Part shown: positions 10,861-26,894 of the stretch, one piece after another
Numbering within the stretch: the stretch's first letter is position 1
How the letters are laid out: each line of letters opens with the position of its first letter
DNA from: Enterobacteria phage mEp021
DNA: 54,655 bases
Reading direction: 5' to 3' (one strand)
Sequence record: MH706966
The notes under the pieces: model-generated
Told to the model about the DNA's origin: nothing
What the model saw: only the letters and a program-made list of their open reading frames with translations
The model's database searches: none
Translations under genes and position numbers: made by a program

Positions 10861-11166
10861 GTTTCTTTCTCCTATGGTTAGAGTGAACGCGCGGGCGGGT
10901 ATCCAATTAGCATTAGATAGCAGTGACTGACCGCTGAACAGATCCCGCCGTTGCGTGATATTTGTTTTTCGCTTCGCAGCGACACCGGATTTTTAAAGAG
11001 CTTTTAAGGTATGTACCTTTTGTGCTTTCCCTTATCTTTTTTCTTGCATCATTGCAACTATGGCCTTACCTTGTCAGCAAGTTTACAGAATGGAGCTTTA
11101 AGATCAAGGCTTGAAAAATACGTTTTGTGACTTGCATCAAAATTTTTTAGGTTATAGGGTAGCGAT
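10861..11166. promoter_or_regulatory. Divergent promoter/operator region between the Cro-like gene and cI
   Basis: 306-bp non-coding spacer with a 14-bp palindrome aaggtatgtacctt (11007-11020), an inverted repeat ttgcatcattgcaa (11044-11057) and a second cttgcatca (11129-11137). Individual operators not assigned. Confidence 0.5.
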
Positions 11167-18834: not shown

Positions 18835-19318
18835 CAGGTTATTGGCCTGCGTTTATGTCGCCGTTTTCGTGATCATCAACCTAATTGTTAACCATTGCGG
18901 CCCGTGGGTGATTCCTATCACTACGGTAGCCGCTGTGTGTGTCAATATGATGATCCGCGACTTCCTGTTATATGACGGCGGTATCAAGTGGTCGGCGACA
19001 ACATGCGCCGCCGCTGGCGCAATCACTGTGCTGATAAATTACGACGCCGGAATGGTAGCGATCGCGTCATTTGTTGCGGTTGTTTCCGGTGCACTTATTT
19101 CTGGCGGCGTTTACCGGGTTTTACCTGGTGACTTTGATTCAAAACGATGGCCTGCAAATATAGCGTCAGCAATAGGCGATGCGTTGATTTTCCCTACGCT
19201 ATCGTTTATGGCATTCATGCCGGAAATATCAGCAATGCAATTCATATCCAAAATGGCGGCGGTAACGGTGATCACTATCATCATGCGCCGCTATTTTACG
19301 TTTGAGGGTAGAAAATGA
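18806..19318 (+). CDS. Multi-pass membrane protein (possibly VUT/YhhQ-like transporter; start uncertain)
   Basis: Four or five hydrophobic segments; loose resemblance to YhhQ-type proteins from memory only. Confidence 0.4.
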   Translation: MTQMKKVTIDRLLACVYVAVFVIINLIVNHCGPWVIPITTVAAVCVNMMIRDFLLYDGGIKWSATTCAAAGAITVLINYDAGMVAIASFVAVVSGALISGGVYRVLPGDFDSKRWPANIASAIGDALIFPTLSFMAFMPEISAMQFISKMAAVTVITIIMRRYFTFEGRK

Positions 19319-20073
19319 GCAGGGGTAAACATTGGTTTAATAATTGGCTTAGAAATTGGGTCGTTTGGTCGTTGTACGACGGCAGCGGGTACGCCGTCAA
19401 AGATTGGGCGGAAGCAGGATATAAGTGCTATTGCTTCAACTATGACGGCGCAAATCACGGCGATTATGAAGGCGTTAAAATCATTCATCCAAATATTGAA
19501 TACGTTAACGTATGGATTGACAGTCACTTCCTGGTGATGTTCTCGCCTGAACTGTCAGTTTACCCAGATCCTGATATTATCCTGGGCTTCCCGCCGTGCG
19601 ACGATCTCGCCGTGTCTGGCGCTCGCTGGTTCGCTGATAAACGGAAAAAAGATCCTGACTTCCAGGTGAAGGCGGCGAATAGCGCAAAACTGGTAGAAAA
19701 ACTGGCGGATATGCACAACGTGCCGTGGATGGTGGAAAATCCGGTGGGAGCACTGTCAACGCTATGGCGCAAACCTGATTTTATTTTCAACCCTTGCGCT
19801 TACGGTGGCTACCTGCCGGAAGACGACAAACATCCTGCTTTCCCTGATGTTTACCCTGCGCGCGACGCGTATACAAAGAAAACTTGCATATGGTGCGGCA
19901 ACGGATTCAAACAGCCGCTTTTTAGACCTGTAGATCTTAACTCTGGCGATAACCCTGGGTGGGCGAAAACAGGAGGCAGGACGAAACGAACAAAGATGAT
20001 ACGCTCACTAACTCCGCGCGGCTTTGCCCGTGCTGTATTCATGGCTAACCATGACCGCGTTTTACCGGACTGA
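19315..20073 (+). CDS. Small DNA C5-cytosine methyltransferase-like protein
   Basis: 252 aa; LYDGSGY (motif I-like), GFPPCDDLAVSG (PC motif, with PCD rather than PCQ), MVENPVG (ENV motif). Confidence 0.45.
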   Translation: MSRGKHWFNNWLRNWVVWSLYDGSGYAVKDWAEAGYKCYCFNYDGANHGDYEGVKIIHPNIEYVNVWIDSHFLVMFSPELSVYPDPDIILGFPPCDDLAVSGARWFADKRKKDPDFQVKAANSAKLVEKLADMHNVPWMVENPVGALSTLWRKPDFIFNPCAYGGYLPEDDKHPAFPDVYPARDAYTKKTCIWCGNGFKQPLFRPVDLNSGDNPGWAKTGGRTKRTKMIRSLTPRGFARAVFMANHDRVLPD

Positions 20074-20170: not shown

Positions 20171-20183
20171 TGCTCTTTAAAAA
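20171..20183 (+). promoter_or_regulatory. Second boxA-like element (tgctctttaaaaa)
   Basis: 12 of 13 match to the boxA consensus tgctctttaacaa; intergenic, upstream of the nin-like genes and Q; no clear boxB hairpin. Confidence 0.3.
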
Positions 20184-20232
20184 TCCGGCAGCGCTGAAAT
20201 GCGTAGAAATCACCTGAAAAGGAGAGAGCATT

Positions 20233-21029: not shown

Positions 21030-21433
21030 ATGAATATTCTTTTAGCCTGCCTTACCCGCCATCGAACAATCGCTATTACCGACATTCTCGCGGTTTTCAC
21101 TATATTAGCAAAGTGGGGAAGGAATACAGGGAACAAGTAAGAGACATCATCGAGCTATTAAATTTAAACATCAACCTATCTTGCCGACTGGCAATAACTA
21201 TTCATGCCGCGCCGCCTGATAACCGGATCAGAGATCTGGATAATATCCCAAAATGCCTTTTTGATAGCCTTACTTACGCCGGATTCTGGACCGACGACGG
21301 ACAAATCGATTCTATAAAAATTGTTCGCTGCCGGAAGGTGAAAGGCGGGCGATTGTTTATTAAGGTGCGCGAGCGCGGCGACCTGTTACCGGATATTGGC
21401 GAATACGAAACTAATATATGGGGTGAGAAATGA
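21026..21433 (+). CDS. rusA: RusA-family Holliday junction resolvase
   Basis: 135 aa; LPYPPSNNRYYR N-terminal signature and conserved acidic residues. Confidence 0.8.
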   Translation: MNEYSFSLPYPPSNNRYYRHSRGFHYISKVGKEYREQVRDIIELLNLNINLSCRLAITIHAAPPDNRIRDLDNIPKCLFDSLTYAGFWTDDGQIDSIKIVRCRKVKGGRLFIKVRERGDLLPDIGEYETNIWGEK

Positions 21434-21612
21434 AAAACGAAATTAAAGATCTGCAAATAGATATTCAGCGCGACGAGCTTGATTTAGCTACAGTCAGGCA
21501 AATCCAGGCTTTCCACATGAGAGAATTGCTTGCGCTGAAAGAGCTTGAAAGAAAGTTGGTCCAGTCAATATCTGATCGCAAAAGACTGGTTGCGCGTTAC
21601 GGGGGTAAATAA
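21430..21612 (+). CDS. Hypothetical small protein (60 aa)
   Basis: ORF between rusA and Q. Confidence 0.35.
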   Translation: MKNEIKDLQIDIQRDELDLATVRQIQAFHMRELLALKELERKLVQSISDRKRLVARYGGK

Positions 21613-22334
21613 TGAATTTGGAATCTATTCTTAAATTCCATTTCCCAAAGTCACCGCGTTTGTCAGATGAAAGCCGTGGAACATCACCTGATGCACTTAA
21701 TACTACTGATGCACTAACCGCCGCAGGTATGGCGCAATCTCGCGTAGAGCTTGGATATAGCGCTTTTTTAGGGAAGATGGAACTATCACAAGCCGAAAAA
21801 CATAAGGCCGTAGTTTTGCTTATAGAGCGTTTAAAGGCTATGGCAAAAGATTATAAATACGTTATGGAACTGGACGAGGCACAACGCAATGATCTCATTA
21901 TTCTTGTTGCCGTTTTTGCGTTTCGGGATTATTGCCAGAGTGCCGCGACGGAAAAAACTTGCATGGAGTGCGGCGGATATAAATTTACGTTTGACGAATA
22001 CGGTGAAAAACACCTTTGTAAAAAATGCAAGGGGCATGGGACAGTTCGCAATCATTGTAAACAATGCAAGGGCCGTGGCGAAGTACCGGACAAAGCAGCC
22101 AGCGAAGCGACGGAAATGCCAGTATTCAAAACGTGCCAGCATTGCGGCGGGCGCGGTTACTCGCGTTTCCCAGTAGATCTTGTTCGGCAGGCGGTTAATC
22201 AGCTTGTTTTCCCTGTAAGCCGATCAACATGGTGGAAGAAATACAGGGTTTTCTATGAAGACGCCATAGTGGAGCTATTCAAAGAAGAATCTCGCGCGGA
22301 AAGCGAAATCAAACGAGTGACACGGGGTGAATAA
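21612..22334 (+). CDS. Q: Late-gene antiterminator Q (lambda Q family)
   Basis: 240 aa; N-terminus LESILKFHFPKSPRLSDESRG...AAGMAQS and Zn-finger CxxC...CxxC region parallel lambda Q as recalled. Confidence 0.7.
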   Translation: MNLESILKFHFPKSPRLSDESRGTSPDALNTTDALTAAGMAQSRVELGYSAFLGKMELSQAEKHKAVVLLIERLKAMAKDYKYVMELDEAQRNDLIILVAVFAFRDYCQSAATEKTCMECGGYKFTFDEYGEKHLCKKCKGHGTVRNHCKQCKGRGEVPDKAASEATEMPVFKTCQHCGGRGYSRFPVDLVRQAVNQLVFPVSRSTWWKKYRVFYEDAIVELFKEESRAESEIKRVTRGE

Positions 22335-22564
22335 TGGAGCTAAAAATCTGGCAGGCTATCGACGTTGTTGATAATGAATTGTCTATGTTCGCCACTAACG
22401 GGAAACGCGTTGTGATCGCTACATGGACTCGTAACCATGATGATATTGCTTTTCGTCGCGCGGCGGCGGAATTGCTTTTCTCTGATGGCGGCTACACGAT
22501 GAACATCGACCAGCTTGCAAGAATGAAAGATGAAAAACTGGTTGATAGCTACACAACTGCTTAA
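22334..22564 (+). CDS. Hypothetical protein (76 aa)
   Basis: ORF directly after Q. Confidence 0.4.
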   Translation: MELKIWQAIDVVDNELSMFATNGKRVVIATWTRNHDDIAFRRAAAELLFSDGGYTMNIDQLARMKDEKLVDSYTTA

Positions 22565-22574
22565 CGGGGTGAAT

Positions 22575-22808
22575 ATGCGTATCTATGAACACAAGCGGGA
22601 TAAAACCCGCTTTTTTGTTCGTGCTGGAGTGGCGTACCAGTATCACGAATGCGGTTACATTGAGGCGCTTGCTTACGATCTGGACTTCGAGCAAGAAAAG
22701 GAATGGTTCGATTTTAAAATTTACCGGAAGCGCAAACCAACGCGCGACGAGCGACACGCTATCCGTGACTTTTTAATCAGCATTGAACGTTGGGAGACAG
22801 AGGAATGA
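22575..22808 (+). CDS. Hypothetical protein (77 aa)
   Basis: Internal ATG with SD acggggtga. Confidence 0.4.
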   Translation: MRIYEHKRDKTRFFVRAGVAYQYHECGYIEALAYDLDFEQEKEWFDFKIYRKRKPTRDERHAIRDFLISIERWETEE

Positions 22809-23032
22809 AGGTAAAATTCTTGCACGATCACGGTTATCCGTCATTGAAACAGGTTGTTGGTAAGGTCGTTGATGTCGTTCATAGCGATGATGTCACTTGC
22901 ATGATTAACGGTGCTGATCTAATTGCCGCTGGTGCTGATGACCATTACATAAATCCAGCGTGGTCGTATACGTTTAGCCTGGGCGACTTCGTTGGCGACA
23001 AGGGGCGCGGGCTGGAAGTGGTCGAGGGTTAA
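22805..23032 (+). CDS. Hypothetical protein (75 aa)
   Basis: ATGA overlap with the upstream stop. Confidence 0.4.
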   Translation: MKVKFLHDHGYPSLKQVVGKVVDVVHSDDVTCMINGADLIAAGADDHYINPAWSYTFSLGDFVGDKGRGLEVVEG

Positions 23033-23036
23033 CATC

Positions 23037-23285
23037 ATGGACGTTTACGAAGATCTATACCTCCAGACAAACACCAACACTTTTTATTTTCTTAAAAACG
23101 GCGTCGTGTATCGCAGTGACGACGGGGTGATAATGAAAGAGTGGTTATTTAAGCGTGAAGACCTACTCGACGATCTGGTTTTTGCCGGTGTATTTCGTAA
23201 ACGTCCGGCTAACCTGGAAGAAGAAATGTTGATTGAGGTTATTAAAAATGAAAATCAGGGTAAGTTATTTCCGGGCGAAAGATAA
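23037..23285 (+). CDS. Hypothetical protein (82 aa)
   Basis: SD gaggg 8 nt upstream. Confidence 0.4.
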   Translation: MDVYEDLYLQTNTNTFYFLKNGVVYRSDDGVIMKEWLFKREDLLDDLVFAGVFRKRPANLEEEMLIEVIKNENQGKLFPGER

Positions 23286-23499
23286 GGCAACAGGAAAGCA
23301 GGTGGCGATCCTGGTTAACGAGGCGCAGTACATGTTTGTCCTTCAGCCGTGGTGTATGGCTGACTATAGCAGTGATTATCGCCGTCATGCTGCGCGGAGT
23401 GCGGTAGGGATGAAGGGATGGCAACCGCGCGACATGGAAAACTATTGTGAATGGAAATTAGTAGCAAAATACACGGTCGATTATAAAGGGGTTTTCTGA
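23248..23499 (+). CDS. Hypothetical protein (83 aa)
   Basis: SD gaggt upstream. Confidence 0.4.
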   Translation: MKIRVSYFRAKDKATGKQVAILVNEAQYMFVLQPWCMADYSSDYRRHAARSAVGMKGWQPRDMENYCEWKLVAKYTVDYKGVF

Positions 23500-23571
23500 T
23501 TAATGTCACTTTCCTGGACGATGCGCGAAACAGGGGCCAAATGGCCCCATTAAACCAGAAGGGGTGGGATC

Positions 23572-23871
23572 ATGAAAAGCGATAAATTCATTGCGTGCTG
23601 TTTTGTCGAAGTTCCTAATGATGATGTTTTCTACAATTATGAATTTAAAGACAGTTGGGGCGGATCTCATGTTGTAGTTGGCAAGCGCGGCGACTGGTTA
23701 TATATCACTGATGGTGACAGGATCTTCACTAAAAACCAGTTGTTAAGAATAAAGGCAGAAAATAATGAAATACCAGTTGGTAATATGGGGATTATGAACT
23801 ACCACGCCTGCCTATGTTTAAAGCAAGATGCGGTAAATAAAGCGCGTAGCTTACCTGGTGCGGAGTTTTAA
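23572..23871 (+). CDS. Hypothetical protein (99 aa)
   Basis: SD aaggggtggga upstream. Confidence 0.45.
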   Translation: MKSDKFIACCFVEVPNDDVFYNYEFKDSWGGSHVVVGKRGDWLYITDGDRIFTKNQLLRIKAENNEIPVGNMGIMNYHACLCLKQDAVNKARSLPGAEF

Positions 23872-23873
23872 TT

Positions 23874-24047
23874 ATGGTTGTGTTCAGGCTATGGCGCGGT
23901 GTTAGTCGTACCGATGGCACGTACAGCCGCGTGATTGAAGATGTAAATCGTGGGCGTTTTTATGAACTGGCATACAATGAGGGAATGGGAAATACATATT
24001 TTGATGAATCTATCCATATGTGGCGGAAGATGGCTGGTGAAGGTTAG
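23874..24047 (+). CDS. Hypothetical small protein (57 aa)
   Basis: Read by eye; below the ORF-track cut-off. Confidence 0.3.
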   Translation: MVVFRLWRGVSRTDGTYSRVIEDVNRGRFYELAYNEGMGNTYFDESIHMWRKMAGEG

Positions 24048-24053
24048 CGACCT

Positions 24054-24230
24054 ATGAACGAGATTGAAGACGGTATCTATTTACACAAGGTATTTAACAT
24101 CACCTATTTACTTAGAGGTGAATCGGTGATGATAAGACCTGATGATGATCCGTATTGGGAATCAAGCGACATGGATCGGTGGCATATGCAAACATTACTA
24201 AATAATGGCCTGATATATAGAAAGCCGTAA
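24054..24230 (+). CDS. Hypothetical small protein (58 aa)
   Basis: Read by eye; below the ORF-track cut-off. Confidence 0.3.
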   Translation: MNEIEDGIYLHKVFNITYLLRGESVMIRPDDDPYWESSDMDRWHMQTLLNNGLIYRKP

Positions 24231-24295
24231 AGCCGTATTTGTAGAGCGTAAACAAACAGATTAAAATATTACCTAACAATGCGAAATTGTAATTA

Positions 24296-24322
24296 CCCGG
24301 CCCCGCGCCGGGTTTTTGCTTT
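24296..24322 (+). terminator. Rho-independent terminator immediately upstream of the lysis cassette (tR'-like by position)
   Basis: Hairpin cccgg-ccccgcg-ccggg followed by tttttgctttg; the holin SD and ATG follow within 20 nt. Confidence 0.6.
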
Positions 24323-24337
24323 GTTGGAGGTAAATCT

Positions 24338-24538
24338 ATGTTCGACAGAATACGGGAGGCGTGTGCGTATGTGACTGGGGCCGTAACTGCTTTTTTCGGC
24401 GCTATAACCATCAATGACGTCGCTGTTTTCGTTGGTATCTTATCAACCATAGGCACATTTGCCGTTAATTATTACTTCAAATCACAGGAGAACAAGCGGG
24501 CGCAAGAGGAACACGACGCGCGAATGGGGAATAAGTAA
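24338..24538 (+). CDS. Holin, pinholin-like (two TM segments)
   Basis: 66 aa; hydrophobic segments and a charged C-terminus; directly upstream of a SAR endolysin. Confidence 0.6.
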   Translation: MFDRIREACAYVTGAVTAFFGAITINDVAVFVGILSTIGTFAVNYYFKSQENKRAQEEHDARMGNK

Positions 24539-25030
24539 ATGATTAGCCAATCGCTGAAAAACAAGATTGTTGCGGCGGCGGCTGGTGGGGCGATCGCTAT
24601 TGCGGCGGTGATGATTAAGCCATTAGAGGGCGTGGAATACGATCCTTATCGTGATGTTGTTGGCGTATGGACTGTTTGCTACGGTCACACCGGAAAAGAC
24701 ATCATGCTTGGGAAGACTTACACGCAATCAGAATGCGATGCTTTGTTGAACAAAGATCTACATAAGACCGCAAAAGCGATTGACCCATATATCAAAGTCG
24801 AAATATCAGATTTTACCCGCGCTGCACTTTATTCATTCGCCTATAACGTAGGCGCAACCAACTTCAAAACATCAACCTTATTAAAGCTACTCAATGACGG
24901 CAAGAAATCAGAGGCGTGCGCACAGCTTAAGCGCTGGGTATACGCTGGCGGTAAGAAGTGGCAAGGCCTGGTTAACCGCCGCGAGGTTGAATATGCCGTT
25001 TGCGAATGGGGTGAGAAATGGACAAGGTGA
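24539..25030 (+). CDS. SAR endolysin (GH24 lysozyme with N-terminal signal-anchor-release segment)
   Basis: 163 aa; N-terminal weakly hydrophobic [15 protein letters not shown]; catalytic region [22 protein letters not shown]. Confidence 0.85.
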
Positions 25031-25488
25031 AGACGTTAATCATCGCCGTTGTTGTTTGCATTATTGCCGGACTGATCGCCGTAACGTGTTATTACCAGGG
25101 TGAAACGGCAAGGTTACAGGAAGAAGTCACGGTGACGAAAGGCGCACTGAAGACAGCAAGTAACACTATTCAGCAGATGAAGGAGCGAAACGCCGAACTG
25201 TCAAAACTTGATAAGAGGTATCACGATGAGATTAAAGCTATCAGATCTGACATTGCCGATCTGCGCACTGGCATTGATAACGGTACTATCAGGCTGCGCG
25301 TCAACGCCGTGCCAATGCGAACAGACAGTAATACCGGAACCTCCAGCCGCATTGATGGAGCCACCTGCGAACCTACTGCCGACGCTAAATCGGCTTATCT
25401 ATCCCTCAGAGAACAACTAAAAATAAAAGACGCACAGATCACTGGCCTACAGGACTACATCAAAACGCAGTGCTTACGCAAAGAATAA
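25018..25488 (+). CDS. Rz: i-spanin Rz
   Basis: 156 aa; N-terminal TM segment then coiled-coil periplasmic domain; position after the endolysin. Confidence 0.65.
25226..25420 (+). CDS. Rz1: o-spanin Rz1, embedded in the +1 frame of Rz
   Basis: Lipobox LSGC after a signal peptide; proline-rich mature part; SD aagagg 7 nt upstream of the ATG. Confidence 0.6.
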   Translation: MRLKLSDLTLPICALALITVLSGCASTPCQCEQTVIPEPPAALMEPPANLLPTLNRLIYPSENN

Positions 25489-25824
25489 CAGCGCGTGGAC
25501 GTGTCGCCGTTTCCGCCAGCCAGCCATAACCGGGCCAATCCTTCCCGCGAGCGACGGCAGAAATTCAAAAACACGTAATACCGGATCAACAGTCCCATTA
25601 ACAGGTCAGGCGCTACCTGGGTAGAAGAAAGCGTCATTACTCACCTGCCATGCGTAGGACGAGCGCCCGGATCTGTTTATCAGAGATGTTAAGCAGGTCC
25701 AGATTTATAAAATTCTGGAAACGGTACTCATGCAGCGCCGTTTTCAGTGTTTTATAGCTGTTTTCACTCCCTGCGGTGTCCAGTTTTGCGGGGGTTATAT
25801 TTTTCAGGATAGAGGAATATTCTG

Positions 25825-26409: not shown

Positions 26410-26411
26410 TT

Positions 26412-26486
26412 ATGATTGACCCGCTCATTATCCTTTCTGCCTGTGTCGCTGTATGGCTGGCGATCATGATATTCATCGAAAGCTGA
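26412..26486 (+). CDS. Mini-ORF 1 of a tandem array: 24-aa single-TM peptide
   Basis: MIDPLIILSACVAVWLAIMIFIES; SD cgggggtga directly upstream. Confidence 0.4.
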   Translation: MIDPLIILSACVAVWLAIMIFIES

Positions 26487-26496
26487 AGGTGTTCAC

Positions 26497-26577
26497 ATGA
26501 ACGCATACGAAATGCTATTGCTGGTGGCTGTAGTTGTAGTCATTGCCGTTGATTTCTATCGAGGGTTTAAAAGATGA
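26497..26577 (+). CDS. Mini-ORF 2: 26-aa single-TM peptide
   Basis: MNAYEMLLLVAVVVVIAVDFYRGFKR; SD aaggtg 5 nt upstream. Confidence 0.4.
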   Translation: MNAYEMLLLVAVVVVIAVDFYRGFKR

Positions 26578-26645
26578 AAGAAGCAGACTTCTTTTGCATG
26601 ATTGTAGTGATCGTCATCATTGCGGTGATTTTAAACCTTAGTTGA
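26574..26645 (+). CDS. Mini-ORF 3: 23-aa single-TM peptide
   Basis: MKEADFFCMIVVIVIIAVILNLS; ATGA overlap with mini-ORF 2; SD gaggg. Confidence 0.4.
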   Translation: MKEADFFCMIVVIVIIAVILNLS

Positions 26646-26662
26646 ATCGCAGGGGGTTGAAA

Positions 26663-26731
26663 ATGAAATGGCTTGATTTCTTTTTCCTGATTGTTGCGAT
26701 TGTTCTAACCATGACCGCGCTTGCTCAATAG
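26663..26731 (+). CDS. Mini-ORF 4: 22-aa single-TM peptide
   Basis: MKWLDFFFLIVAIVLTMTALAQ; SD aggggg 6 nt upstream. Confidence 0.4.
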   Translation: MKWLDFFFLIVAIVLTMTALAQ

Positions 26732-26800
26732 GTTATGGCTTGGACGCGCATTTTATGCGCTTCCTAAACTTAGTAAGCCAAAGAAAGAGAATGGCAAACA

Positions 26801-26884
26801 ATGAAATATCTATCCAGTTGGTTTGGTGTATCAATATACTTCGCAACATTAATCGAGTGTTTATATATAGTGAATAAATTTTAA
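26801..26884 (+). CDS. Mini-ORF 5: 27-aa hydrophobic peptide (start less certain)
   Basis: MKYLSSWFGVSIYFATLIECLYIVNKF; weaker purine-rich SD (aaagaga) about 10 nt upstream. Confidence 0.3.
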   Translation: MKYLSSWFGVSIYFATLIECLYIVNKF

Positions 26885-26894
26885 GAGGTGAATT

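Follow-up and report, generated by a model that had tools for sequence, protein, structure and literature searches.

We analysed the region between the antiterminator gene Q and the lysis genes of Enterobacteria phage mEp021, in a stretch of 54,655 nucleotides (nt) from sequence record MH706966 (hereafter the window; position 1 is its first letter). Our results suggest that the late switch of this phage is probably split: the target module of Q, with a candidate late promoter (PR'), a pause element and a terminator, would lie in the 107-nt gap before the holin gene, while the eight small genes that separate this gap from Q (o1 to o8) would belong to the early transcription unit. A previous sequence-only reading had offered two alternatives, namely that the Q-dependent promoter immediately precedes the terminator, in which case the eight genes are early, or that the eight genes are late-expressed cargo. 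Our analysis favours the first, on the basis of a -10 and pause element and of purifying selection, and not the second, as nothing promoter-like beside Q is conserved and the sequence abutting Q differs among viable relatives. What we propose is an unusual layout of a known mechanism, that of lambda Q, and not a new mechanism. The phage belongs with the mEpimmI group, which comprises Nus-dependent temperate coliphages of human faecal origin. Their frequency in human faecal samples is reported to match that of lambdoid phages, and an N-like antiterminator, Gp17, and three nut sites have been characterised for them (PMC11893012). The same study names a 'Q-lambda-like' protein; the late promoter was not mapped there.

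The stretch from 21400 to 24600 is 99.9% identical to Escherichia phage mEp515 and, piecewise, 86-92% identical to mEp010, mEp013, mEp044, mEp554 and MagusPhagus, all of them mEpimmI phages. Our comparative set consists of 45 viral contigs, anchored on Q and not on the motif, together with six GenBank phages. Diversity figures come from 48 Q-anchored, motif-unbiased loci (42 unique sequences), and the counts of distance, -35 variants and adjacency from 50 Q-anchored relatives.

The 107-nt gap contains, in order, TTGTAG, 17 nt, TAAAAT, ATTACCT, AACAAT, GCGAAATTGTAATT and a terminator hairpin (coordinates in Table 1). The sequence-only reading had pointed to 24100-24295 as the place to look for a -10 element, and it is there that TAAAAT is found, followed at lambda-like spacing by the -10-like AACAAT. 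The corresponding order in lambda PR' is TTGACT, 17 nt, TAAATT, TGACTC, AACGAT, in which AACGAT, at +1 to +6, is an experimentally defined -10-like element associated with a sigma70 pause at +16 and with Q loading. Pause hexamers with the same geometry are AACGAT in lambda, P22 and an Stx2 phage, AACGCT in phi80 and Edno5, AACAGT in ES18 and AACACT in Eho49; the gap between the -10 and the pause hexamer is 7 nt here versus 6 nt in lambda, P22 and the Stx2 phage. The predicted first transcribed bases resemble those of Edno5 and ES18 (AACnnT..GAAAT). The 17-nt spacer before TAAAAT contains AAACAAAC, and its conserved part, AAACAAAYRGAT, is a candidate Q-binding element (QBE). Its AAACAA and GAT do not vary among 31 unique sequences, and diversity over 24250-24267 is 0.04. 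The QBE of lambda is likewise placed between the -35 and the -10 in a figure legend (Fig. 1B), and that of phi80 is annotated in the same position.

Using a relaxed pattern (-10, 5-8 nt, AACNNT), we scanned the DNA downstream of Q in eleven diverse phages with a lambda-family Q. In seven of them (lambda, P22, phi80, ES18, Eho49, Edno5 and the Stx2 phage) exactly one site occurs 28-66 nt after Q, and in most of the seven a terminator hairpin is evident after it. The same scan in the window, from the start of Q to the holin, gives one site only, at 24262. We estimate the chance of a relaxed match within the 60 nt before the terminator at about 0.015. The statistical rarity of the -10 plus AACNNT motif by itself was dropped as an argument, the motif being no rarer than chance, and the case for the 24262 site therefore rests on position and conservation.

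Mean pairwise diversity of the module is 0.058, like that of codon positions 1 and 2 of the neighbouring genes, compared with 0.163 at synonymous positions of the holin gene, 0.225 at those of the endolysin gene and 0.248 in the DNA just upstream of the module. These values indicate that the noncoding module is under purifying selection across the family. Between AAACAAA and the holin ATG it is near-invariant. At least four different genes adjoin it upstream, with o8 directly before it in most, not all, relatives, and two different holin 5' ends follow it; it behaves as an independent unit. Outside the family, the module is absent from all other phage records.

A terminator directly before the holin gene had been claimed from the sequence alone, and we confirm it, with its end 16 nt before the holin ATG. 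Its stem, ACCCGGC/GCCGGGT (24295-24313), has seven pairs, six of them G-C, with a loop of 5 nt and TTTTTGCTTTG after it. The fold has an energy of -18.1 kcal/mol (z=-2.8), and the hairpin with its T run is among the three best plus-strand terminators between 10.5 and 30 kb. The record of mEp515 carries an ARNold annotation of the same structure (terminator T9), which is independent of our scan. The hairpin arms are invariant (diversity 0.007) while the loop varies freely (0.224). An intrinsic terminator is thus present between the candidate PR' and the late genes, with the genes for holin, endolysin and spanins after it.

The Q product, of 240 amino acids (aa), matches Pfam PF03589 (Antitermination protein Q; E=1e-29) and aligns with lambda Q (PDB 7UBM; E=3e-39) in two blocks, residues 1-113 and 148-238; it is a member of the lambda-Q family, which is marked by a helix-turn-helix body and a zinc-ribbon arm. 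Homologs of NinG and RusA are encoded just upstream. Between the aligned blocks Q has an insertion of 34 residues relative to lambda Q (about 114-147; 21953-22054 in the window) with a second CXXC...CXXC pair. Q contains four CXXCXGXG-like motifs, and a match to DnaJ_CXXCXGXG was below threshold. Within the gene, at 21899-21930, synonymous diversity dips sharply (0.03) over an inverted repeat, GCAATGATCTC/GGGATTATTGC, of which the fold is not significant (z=-1.8).

In this phage no PR' unit stands directly downstream of Q; the candidate module is 1.9 kb away. The separation of about 2 kb between Q and the lysis genes given in the sequence-only reading holds, with all elements found where it had put them and a Q-to-holin distance of 2003 nt. 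Among the relatives this distance ranges from 2003 to 6801 nt (median 5379), the shortest being that of the window and mEp515, and from Q to the module it is up to 6.7 kb, the genes in between numbering from 8 to about 27. In none of the 50 viral loci does the module adjoin Q. In a survey of 5426 complete E. coli genomes Q and the module occur together in 35, in none of which are they adjacent. About 85 family members agree in the predicted split layout. At least four unrelated kinds of gene abut Q, the ATG overlapping the Q stop in every relative, and in most relatives o1 and o2 are 1-2 kb from Q. There can therefore be no fixed noncoding element beside Q. Further, mEp515 forms plaques though it is without the Q-proximal genes of its relatives, so the Q-proximal DNA missing from it cannot hold an essential promoter. 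A junction of Shine-Dalgarno (SD) sequence and start codon, GGGGTGA(N2-4)ATG, is repeated at the starts of orf60, Q, o1, o2 and o6; such repeats could have mediated a deletion that placed o1 directly after Q in the mEp515 lineage.

Several observations weigh against a Q target before the holin gene. The -35 is weak (3/6), and although TTGTAG, TTGTGG or TTGTAT is present at this position in 38 of the 50 relatives, the other 12 have TCGCGC, with no obvious substitute. A standard scan did not list the candidate promoter before the holin gene because of this 3/6 match. The position equivalent to the core of the phi80 QBE varies among relatives. After Q, the relaxed pattern is missing in four of the eleven phages with a lambda-family Q. 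A stricter -10 plus AACNNT composite occurs ten times in the window, both strands included, versus 9.5 expected, and by our estimate, assuming uniform base composition, chance alone would give about 0.7 relaxed matches in the 2.7-kb interval. With its start at about +21, the terminator stem falls within the zone from +17 to +28, where Q-modified complexes of lambda remain scrunched on the pause element; by our own count from the sequence the stem of P22 starts near +30. Finally, linkage to the holin gene could be a partial cause of the conservation of the module. As a separate observation, the 12 loci without a -35 match (among them L004, L048, L051, L056, L076, L081, L082, L085 and L087) carry a second allele of the -35 region, CCATAATCGCGCATAAAAAACAAAT, within the 30 nt upstream of TAAAAT, and they include both Q alleles; among the 50 relatives the -35 variant showed no association with the length of Q (240 or 242 aa, the two alleles).

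We infer promoter activity, pausing, Q binding, Q-dependent read-through and an early timing of the eight genes from these elements, as follows. Early rightward transcription, modified by Gp17 at nutR2, would proceed through ninG, rusA, Q and the small-gene block. Since o1 to o8 lie upstream of the candidate late promoter and their starts and stops are chained to Q, they would be transcribed with Q from the early operon, as a hypervariable, delayed-early accessory block resembling the nin region and extending past Q. Transcription from a separate promoter at 24239-24267 would start near 24275 and pause on AACAAT. Without Q it would terminate at 24320-24322, giving an RNA of about 46-48 nt. With Q, the spacer would be bound, the paused complex modified, and the polymerase would read through into the holin, endolysin, Rz/Rz1 and morphogenesis genes.

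The position of nutR2 is given as downstream of a methyltransferase gene (PMC11893012), which in the window is taken to be 19315-20073, judging from its translation. At that position, 20171-20205 holds a boxA-like TGCTCTTTAAAAA and then a small hairpin with an A-rich loop. A boxA-like nutR2 upstream of ninG, rusA and Q is consistent with antiterminated early transcription through Q, the block and the terminator-like hairpin in o2 described below. A second match to the boxA core, on the minus strand at 10994-11001, may be nutL.

The hairpin in o2 resembles an intrinsic terminator. With its T6 (22593-22612 for the hairpin) it is identical in 37 of the 42 unique relatives, and in one relative CGG has become CGC and, in compensation, ACC has become ACG, both changes being synonymous. 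Its third-position diversity is 0.03, compared with a mean of 0.21, and none of 200 shuffled sequences folded as stably (z=-3.56). The segment 22593-22618 is thus coding sequence that doubles as a conserved RNA structure, and its strong conservation suggests that the hairpin is functional. We found no conserved promoter upstream of it. We read it as an operon-internal terminator that only antiterminated polymerase would pass: Gp17-modified polymerase would override it, and unmodified polymerase would be stopped inside the block.

The alternative that survives best, although we consider it unlikely, is that the 24295 hairpin is a plain insulator that only closes the early operon, the conservation upstream of it being that of, for instance, a holin mRNA leader or a protein-binding site, with Q acting at another promoter elsewhere or the lysis genes reached by N-like read-through. 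The weak -35, lacking in 12 of the 50 relatives, would fit this, as would the frequency by chance of -10 plus AACNNT over the window. There is a further match to the motif at 25708 (TAAAAT, 6 nt, AACGGT), between Rz and the next open reading frame (ORF), and a sub-threshold match to the Rfam rnk leader, a terminator-containing leader, at 24234-24325 (26.5 bits versus a cut-off of 55 bits), which was the only match to a known RNA family; a tRNA search found none. A bare terminator, however, needs no 45 or so conserved nucleotides upstream of it with an invariant TAAAAT and CTAACAATGCGAAA. The site at 25708, read by eye, has no convincing terminator hairpin or -35, and the lysis genes, for which late expression is itself needed, lie upstream of it. 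Moreover, with a strong terminator only 16 nt ahead of the first late gene, some device for antitermination is required, and a Q of the lambda family is encoded here.

A second alternative takes up the late-cargo suggestion of the sequence-only reading: a Q-dependent promoter at or just after Q would make the eight genes late, and Q-modified polymerase would read through the terminators at 22593 and 24295. The canonical cassette does have PR' adjacent to Q, and a hexamer scan gives a promoter-like site in o1 at 22348-22375 (CTGGCA, 16 nt, GATAAT), the only one near Q. After it come TATGTT and two terminator-like hairpins, one at 22451 and one at 22593, the latter strongly conserved. The candidate site did not withstand comparison. 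The T of its -10 is changed to C in many of the 42 unique relatives (about 14 by our own count), and it is under no synonymous constraint, its third-position diversity of 0.19-0.27 being average. The hairpin at 22451-22471 was rejected as a terminator, as it is not conserved as a hairpin (z=-1.4). There is no intergenic space after Q in any relative, the gene that follows it varies in kind as described above, and nowhere from Q to o8 is there a match to the relaxed lambda-family PR' pattern. The sole module comes after o8 and none is conserved between Q and o1, so that cargo downstream of a PR'-terminator unit, as in Shiga toxin (Stx) phages, is not the arrangement found. The late-cargo explanation would also leave the conserved -10 and AACAAT before the holin gene unexplained, and we regard it as very improbable.

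It has also to be considered that the small genes are morons, that is, autonomous cassettes with their own promoters and terminators that are expressed from the prophage. The block is hypervariable in gene content and has terminator-like hairpins inside it, and on the minus strand, at 23509-23480, there is an 11/12 match to the consensus promoter. The genes nevertheless follow one another so closely that stops and starts overlap or nearly abut, and each gene has its own SD; the gaps inside the block are only 72 nt or at most 10 nt, no plus-strand promoter is conserved, and the arrangement is not that of genes each flanked by a promoter and terminator of their own and expressed independently of the phage operons. 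This explanation seems to us scarcely credible. The minus-strand match (GTGACA, 18 nt, TATAAT), which is antisense to o5, was rejected as a promoter of the block; it straddles a recombination junction, and since its -35 is on the far side of that junction and most relatives lack it, the match is probably fortuitous or specific to a lineage.

N-like-modified polymerase is expected to resist pausing, and this counts against the last and equally remote alternative, in which there is no dedicated late promoter and Q loads on polymerase of the early operon through sigma70 re-engaging TAAAAT/AACAAT in trans, at a promoter-less qut; 12 of the 50 relatives lack any -35 and the co-oriented block directly upstream means that early transcription must reach the site, but the -10 and the pause element are spaced like promoter and pause in lambda PR', and lambda-type Q loading is described only for promoter-proximal complexes that contain sigma.

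The eight small ORFs of 57-99 aa that had been noted after Q are borne out as eight co-oriented ORFs in this size range, and all are real coding genes. Substitutions in all eight pile up at codon position 3, and homologous copies are nearly all intact. They are chained in the manner of an operon: o2 and o3 overlap by 4 nt, o4 and o5 by 38 nt, and the remaining gaps are 2-10 nt, except for the larger gaps of 72 nt between o5 and o6 and 107 nt before the holin gene. The genes o1-o5 are present in every relative, while the presence of o6-o8 is variable. The gap between o5 and o6 is the insertion point, with 0.3-1.5 kb of extra genes there in most relatives, and contains a GC-rich hairpin without a T run, GGGGCC-AAAT-GGCCCC (23533-23548), that travels with o6. 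The proteins of o1-o8 had no match in Pfam, NCBIfam or PADLOC, none was matched to a Nin family, and their PHROGs labels are 'unknown function'. Searches of large databases with o3 gave short hypothetical proteins only, besides matches to two long repeat proteins (forkhead and sushi) that we regard as spurious. Homologs of o3, 41-43% identical, are found in about 119 records of rV5-like (Vequintavirinae) virulent phages, some of them labelled as Campylobacter phages. We conjecture that o1-o8 are host-takeover or anti-defence genes, which would fit their small size, early placement and mosaicism.

Table 1. Features of the Q to lysis region of mEp021, in window coordinates. Coding signal is given as substitutions versus relatives at codon positions 1/2/3; the shorter lengths of o2-o5 are those from ATG starts that fit PHROG profiles, with the longest ORF in brackets.
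Feature	Position	Strand	Basis
boxA-like TGCTCTTTAAAAA	20171..20183	+	pattern match; position of nutR2, upstream of ninG-rusA-orf60-Q
GGGGTGA(N2-4)ATG junctions	21420-21432, 21597-21611, 22324-22336, 22566-22577, 23557-23571		gene starts
Q antiterminator gene, lambda-Q family	21612..22334	+	PF03589 E=1e-29; lambda Q 7UBM E=3e-39
o1, 76 aa, core gene, ATG overlapping Q stop (TAATG)	22334..22564	+	coding signal 132/165/622; phrog_38280, function unknown
o2, 77 aa (92 aa), core gene	22575..22808	+	coding signal 47/31/544; phrog_30442
Intrinsic-terminator-like hairpin in o2 codons 7-15	22593..22618	+	AAGCGGG-ATAAAA-CCCGCTT + TTTTTGTT
o3, 75 aa (80 aa), core gene, predicted SH3-like small beta-barrel	22805..23032	+	coding signal 151/64/690
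o4, 82 aa (97 aa), core gene	23037..23285	+	coding signal; no family match
o5, 83 aa (88 aa), core gene, 38-nt overlap with o4	23248..23499	+	coding signal; phrog_38609
72-nt o5/o6 gap, recombination junction	23500..23571	+	junction mapping; fold
o6, 99 aa, variable gene	23572..23871	+	coding signal; AF2 model of low confidence (pLDDT 62)
o7, 57 aa, variable gene	23874..24047	+	coding signal; phrog_32200
o8, 58 aa, variable gene	24054..24230	+	coding signal; phrog_15318
Candidate PR' -35, TTGTAG (3/6 match)	24239..24244	+	sequence
17-nt spacer, conserved AAACAAAYRGAT, candidate QBE	24245..24261	+	conservation
Candidate PR' -10, TAAAAT (5/6 match)	24262..24267	+	unchanged in all 50 Q-anchored relatives
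Candidate sigma70-dependent pause element AACAAT, predicted +1 to +6	24275..24280	+	invariant
tR'-like intrinsic terminator, predicted +21 to about +48	24295..24322	+	scan, fold; T9 in mEp515
Holin SD, GGAGG	24326..24330	+	sequence
Holin, 66 aa, first late gene	24338..24538	+	PF16080 E=6.7e-15
Endolysin, 163 aa	24539..25030	+	PHROG 7 E=4e-66
Rz-like i-spanin	25018..25488	+	ORF reading; homologous gene annotated Rz-like spanin in MagusPhagus
Rz1 lipoprotein, embedded in Rz	25208..25420	+	nested ORF, lipobox LSGC

Downstream of the lysis cassette, between it and a small terminase-like gene, is a region with an ORF of 194 aa flanked by two stretches, 25489-25824 and 26410-26894, that are unusually long for DNA without convincing genes.

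Linkage of Q to its target is usually assumed to keep regulator and site together during mosaic recombination. The mEpimmI group would be a natural exception, as 2-7 kb of DNA, the most variable part of the genome, separates Q from its probable target. If this is true, the genes from Q to the lysis cassette are early here and late in Stx phages, and annotators of mEpimmI genomes gain a concrete place for PR', qut and the terminator tR'. Q is still hypothetical in five of the six GenBank records: it is labelled 'hypothetical protein' in five mEp records, PP180001-PP180005 (loci L001-L003, L005 and L006), as is the holin in four of them, mEp044 being without an annotated coding sequence there. 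MagusPhagus is the only one of the six in which both Q and holin are named. We further speculate, and hold it to be rather improbable as a whole, that the space between Q and qut (8 to about 27 genes in 2 to 6.8 kb) is a zone dedicated to the accretion of delayed-early host-takeover or anti-defence genes, gated by the o2 terminator, and that the constitutively made PR' RNA of about 47 nt is a regulatory small RNA in lysogens, like StxS.

In comparison with the cassettes of lambda and P22, the Q proteins are homologous, the candidate promoter, the candidate -10-like pause element and the terminator are in the same order at near-identical spacing, with AACAAT here versus AACGAT as the pause hexamer, and the terminator is followed by lysis genes. 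The sequence-only reading had placed the late promoter and terminator of lambda within about 200 bp of Q, which is roughly right: the PR' -10 starts 66 nt after the Q stop, and the end of tR' is, by our own reading, about 270 nt after Q. The cassette of Q-binding element, pause element and terminator has been defined with PR' adjacent to Q, and it is in this respect that mEp021 differs, as Q is not adjacent to the module. Other differences are that the terminator ends 16 nt before the holin ATG, that Q has a second CXXC...CXXC pair and that a -35 is either weak or lacking. For the terminated RNA a length of about 46-48 nt is predicted, compared with roughly 190 nt in lambda and about 63 nt in P22 (our own counts).

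As in Stx phages, at least some of which have a Q of this family, Q is separated from the lysis cassette by kilobases of accessory genes. According to passages in PMC6266700 and PMC7547250, PR' in Stx phages is directly after Q, and the cargo is downstream of tR' and late under Q control. In mEp021 the module comes after the cargo, and the predicted timing is therefore the opposite. The block resembles the nin region of lambda in that its genes are small, closely chained, mosaic and poorly characterised and in that it contains internal terminators; it would also be part of the rightward early operon and, as predicted here, be transcribed only by N-type antiterminated polymerase. Unlike the nin genes, which lie between P and Q, it is downstream of Q. 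In Stx phages the short RNA StxS is described, in a passage of PMC7547250, as a by-product of constitutive PR' transcription terminated at tR'. The RNA predicted here would be like StxS and the lambda 6S RNA in being a short PR'-tR' transcript with a terminator hairpin and a U tail, and would differ from these in its length of about 47 nt and its conserved single-stranded 5' end of 20 nt.

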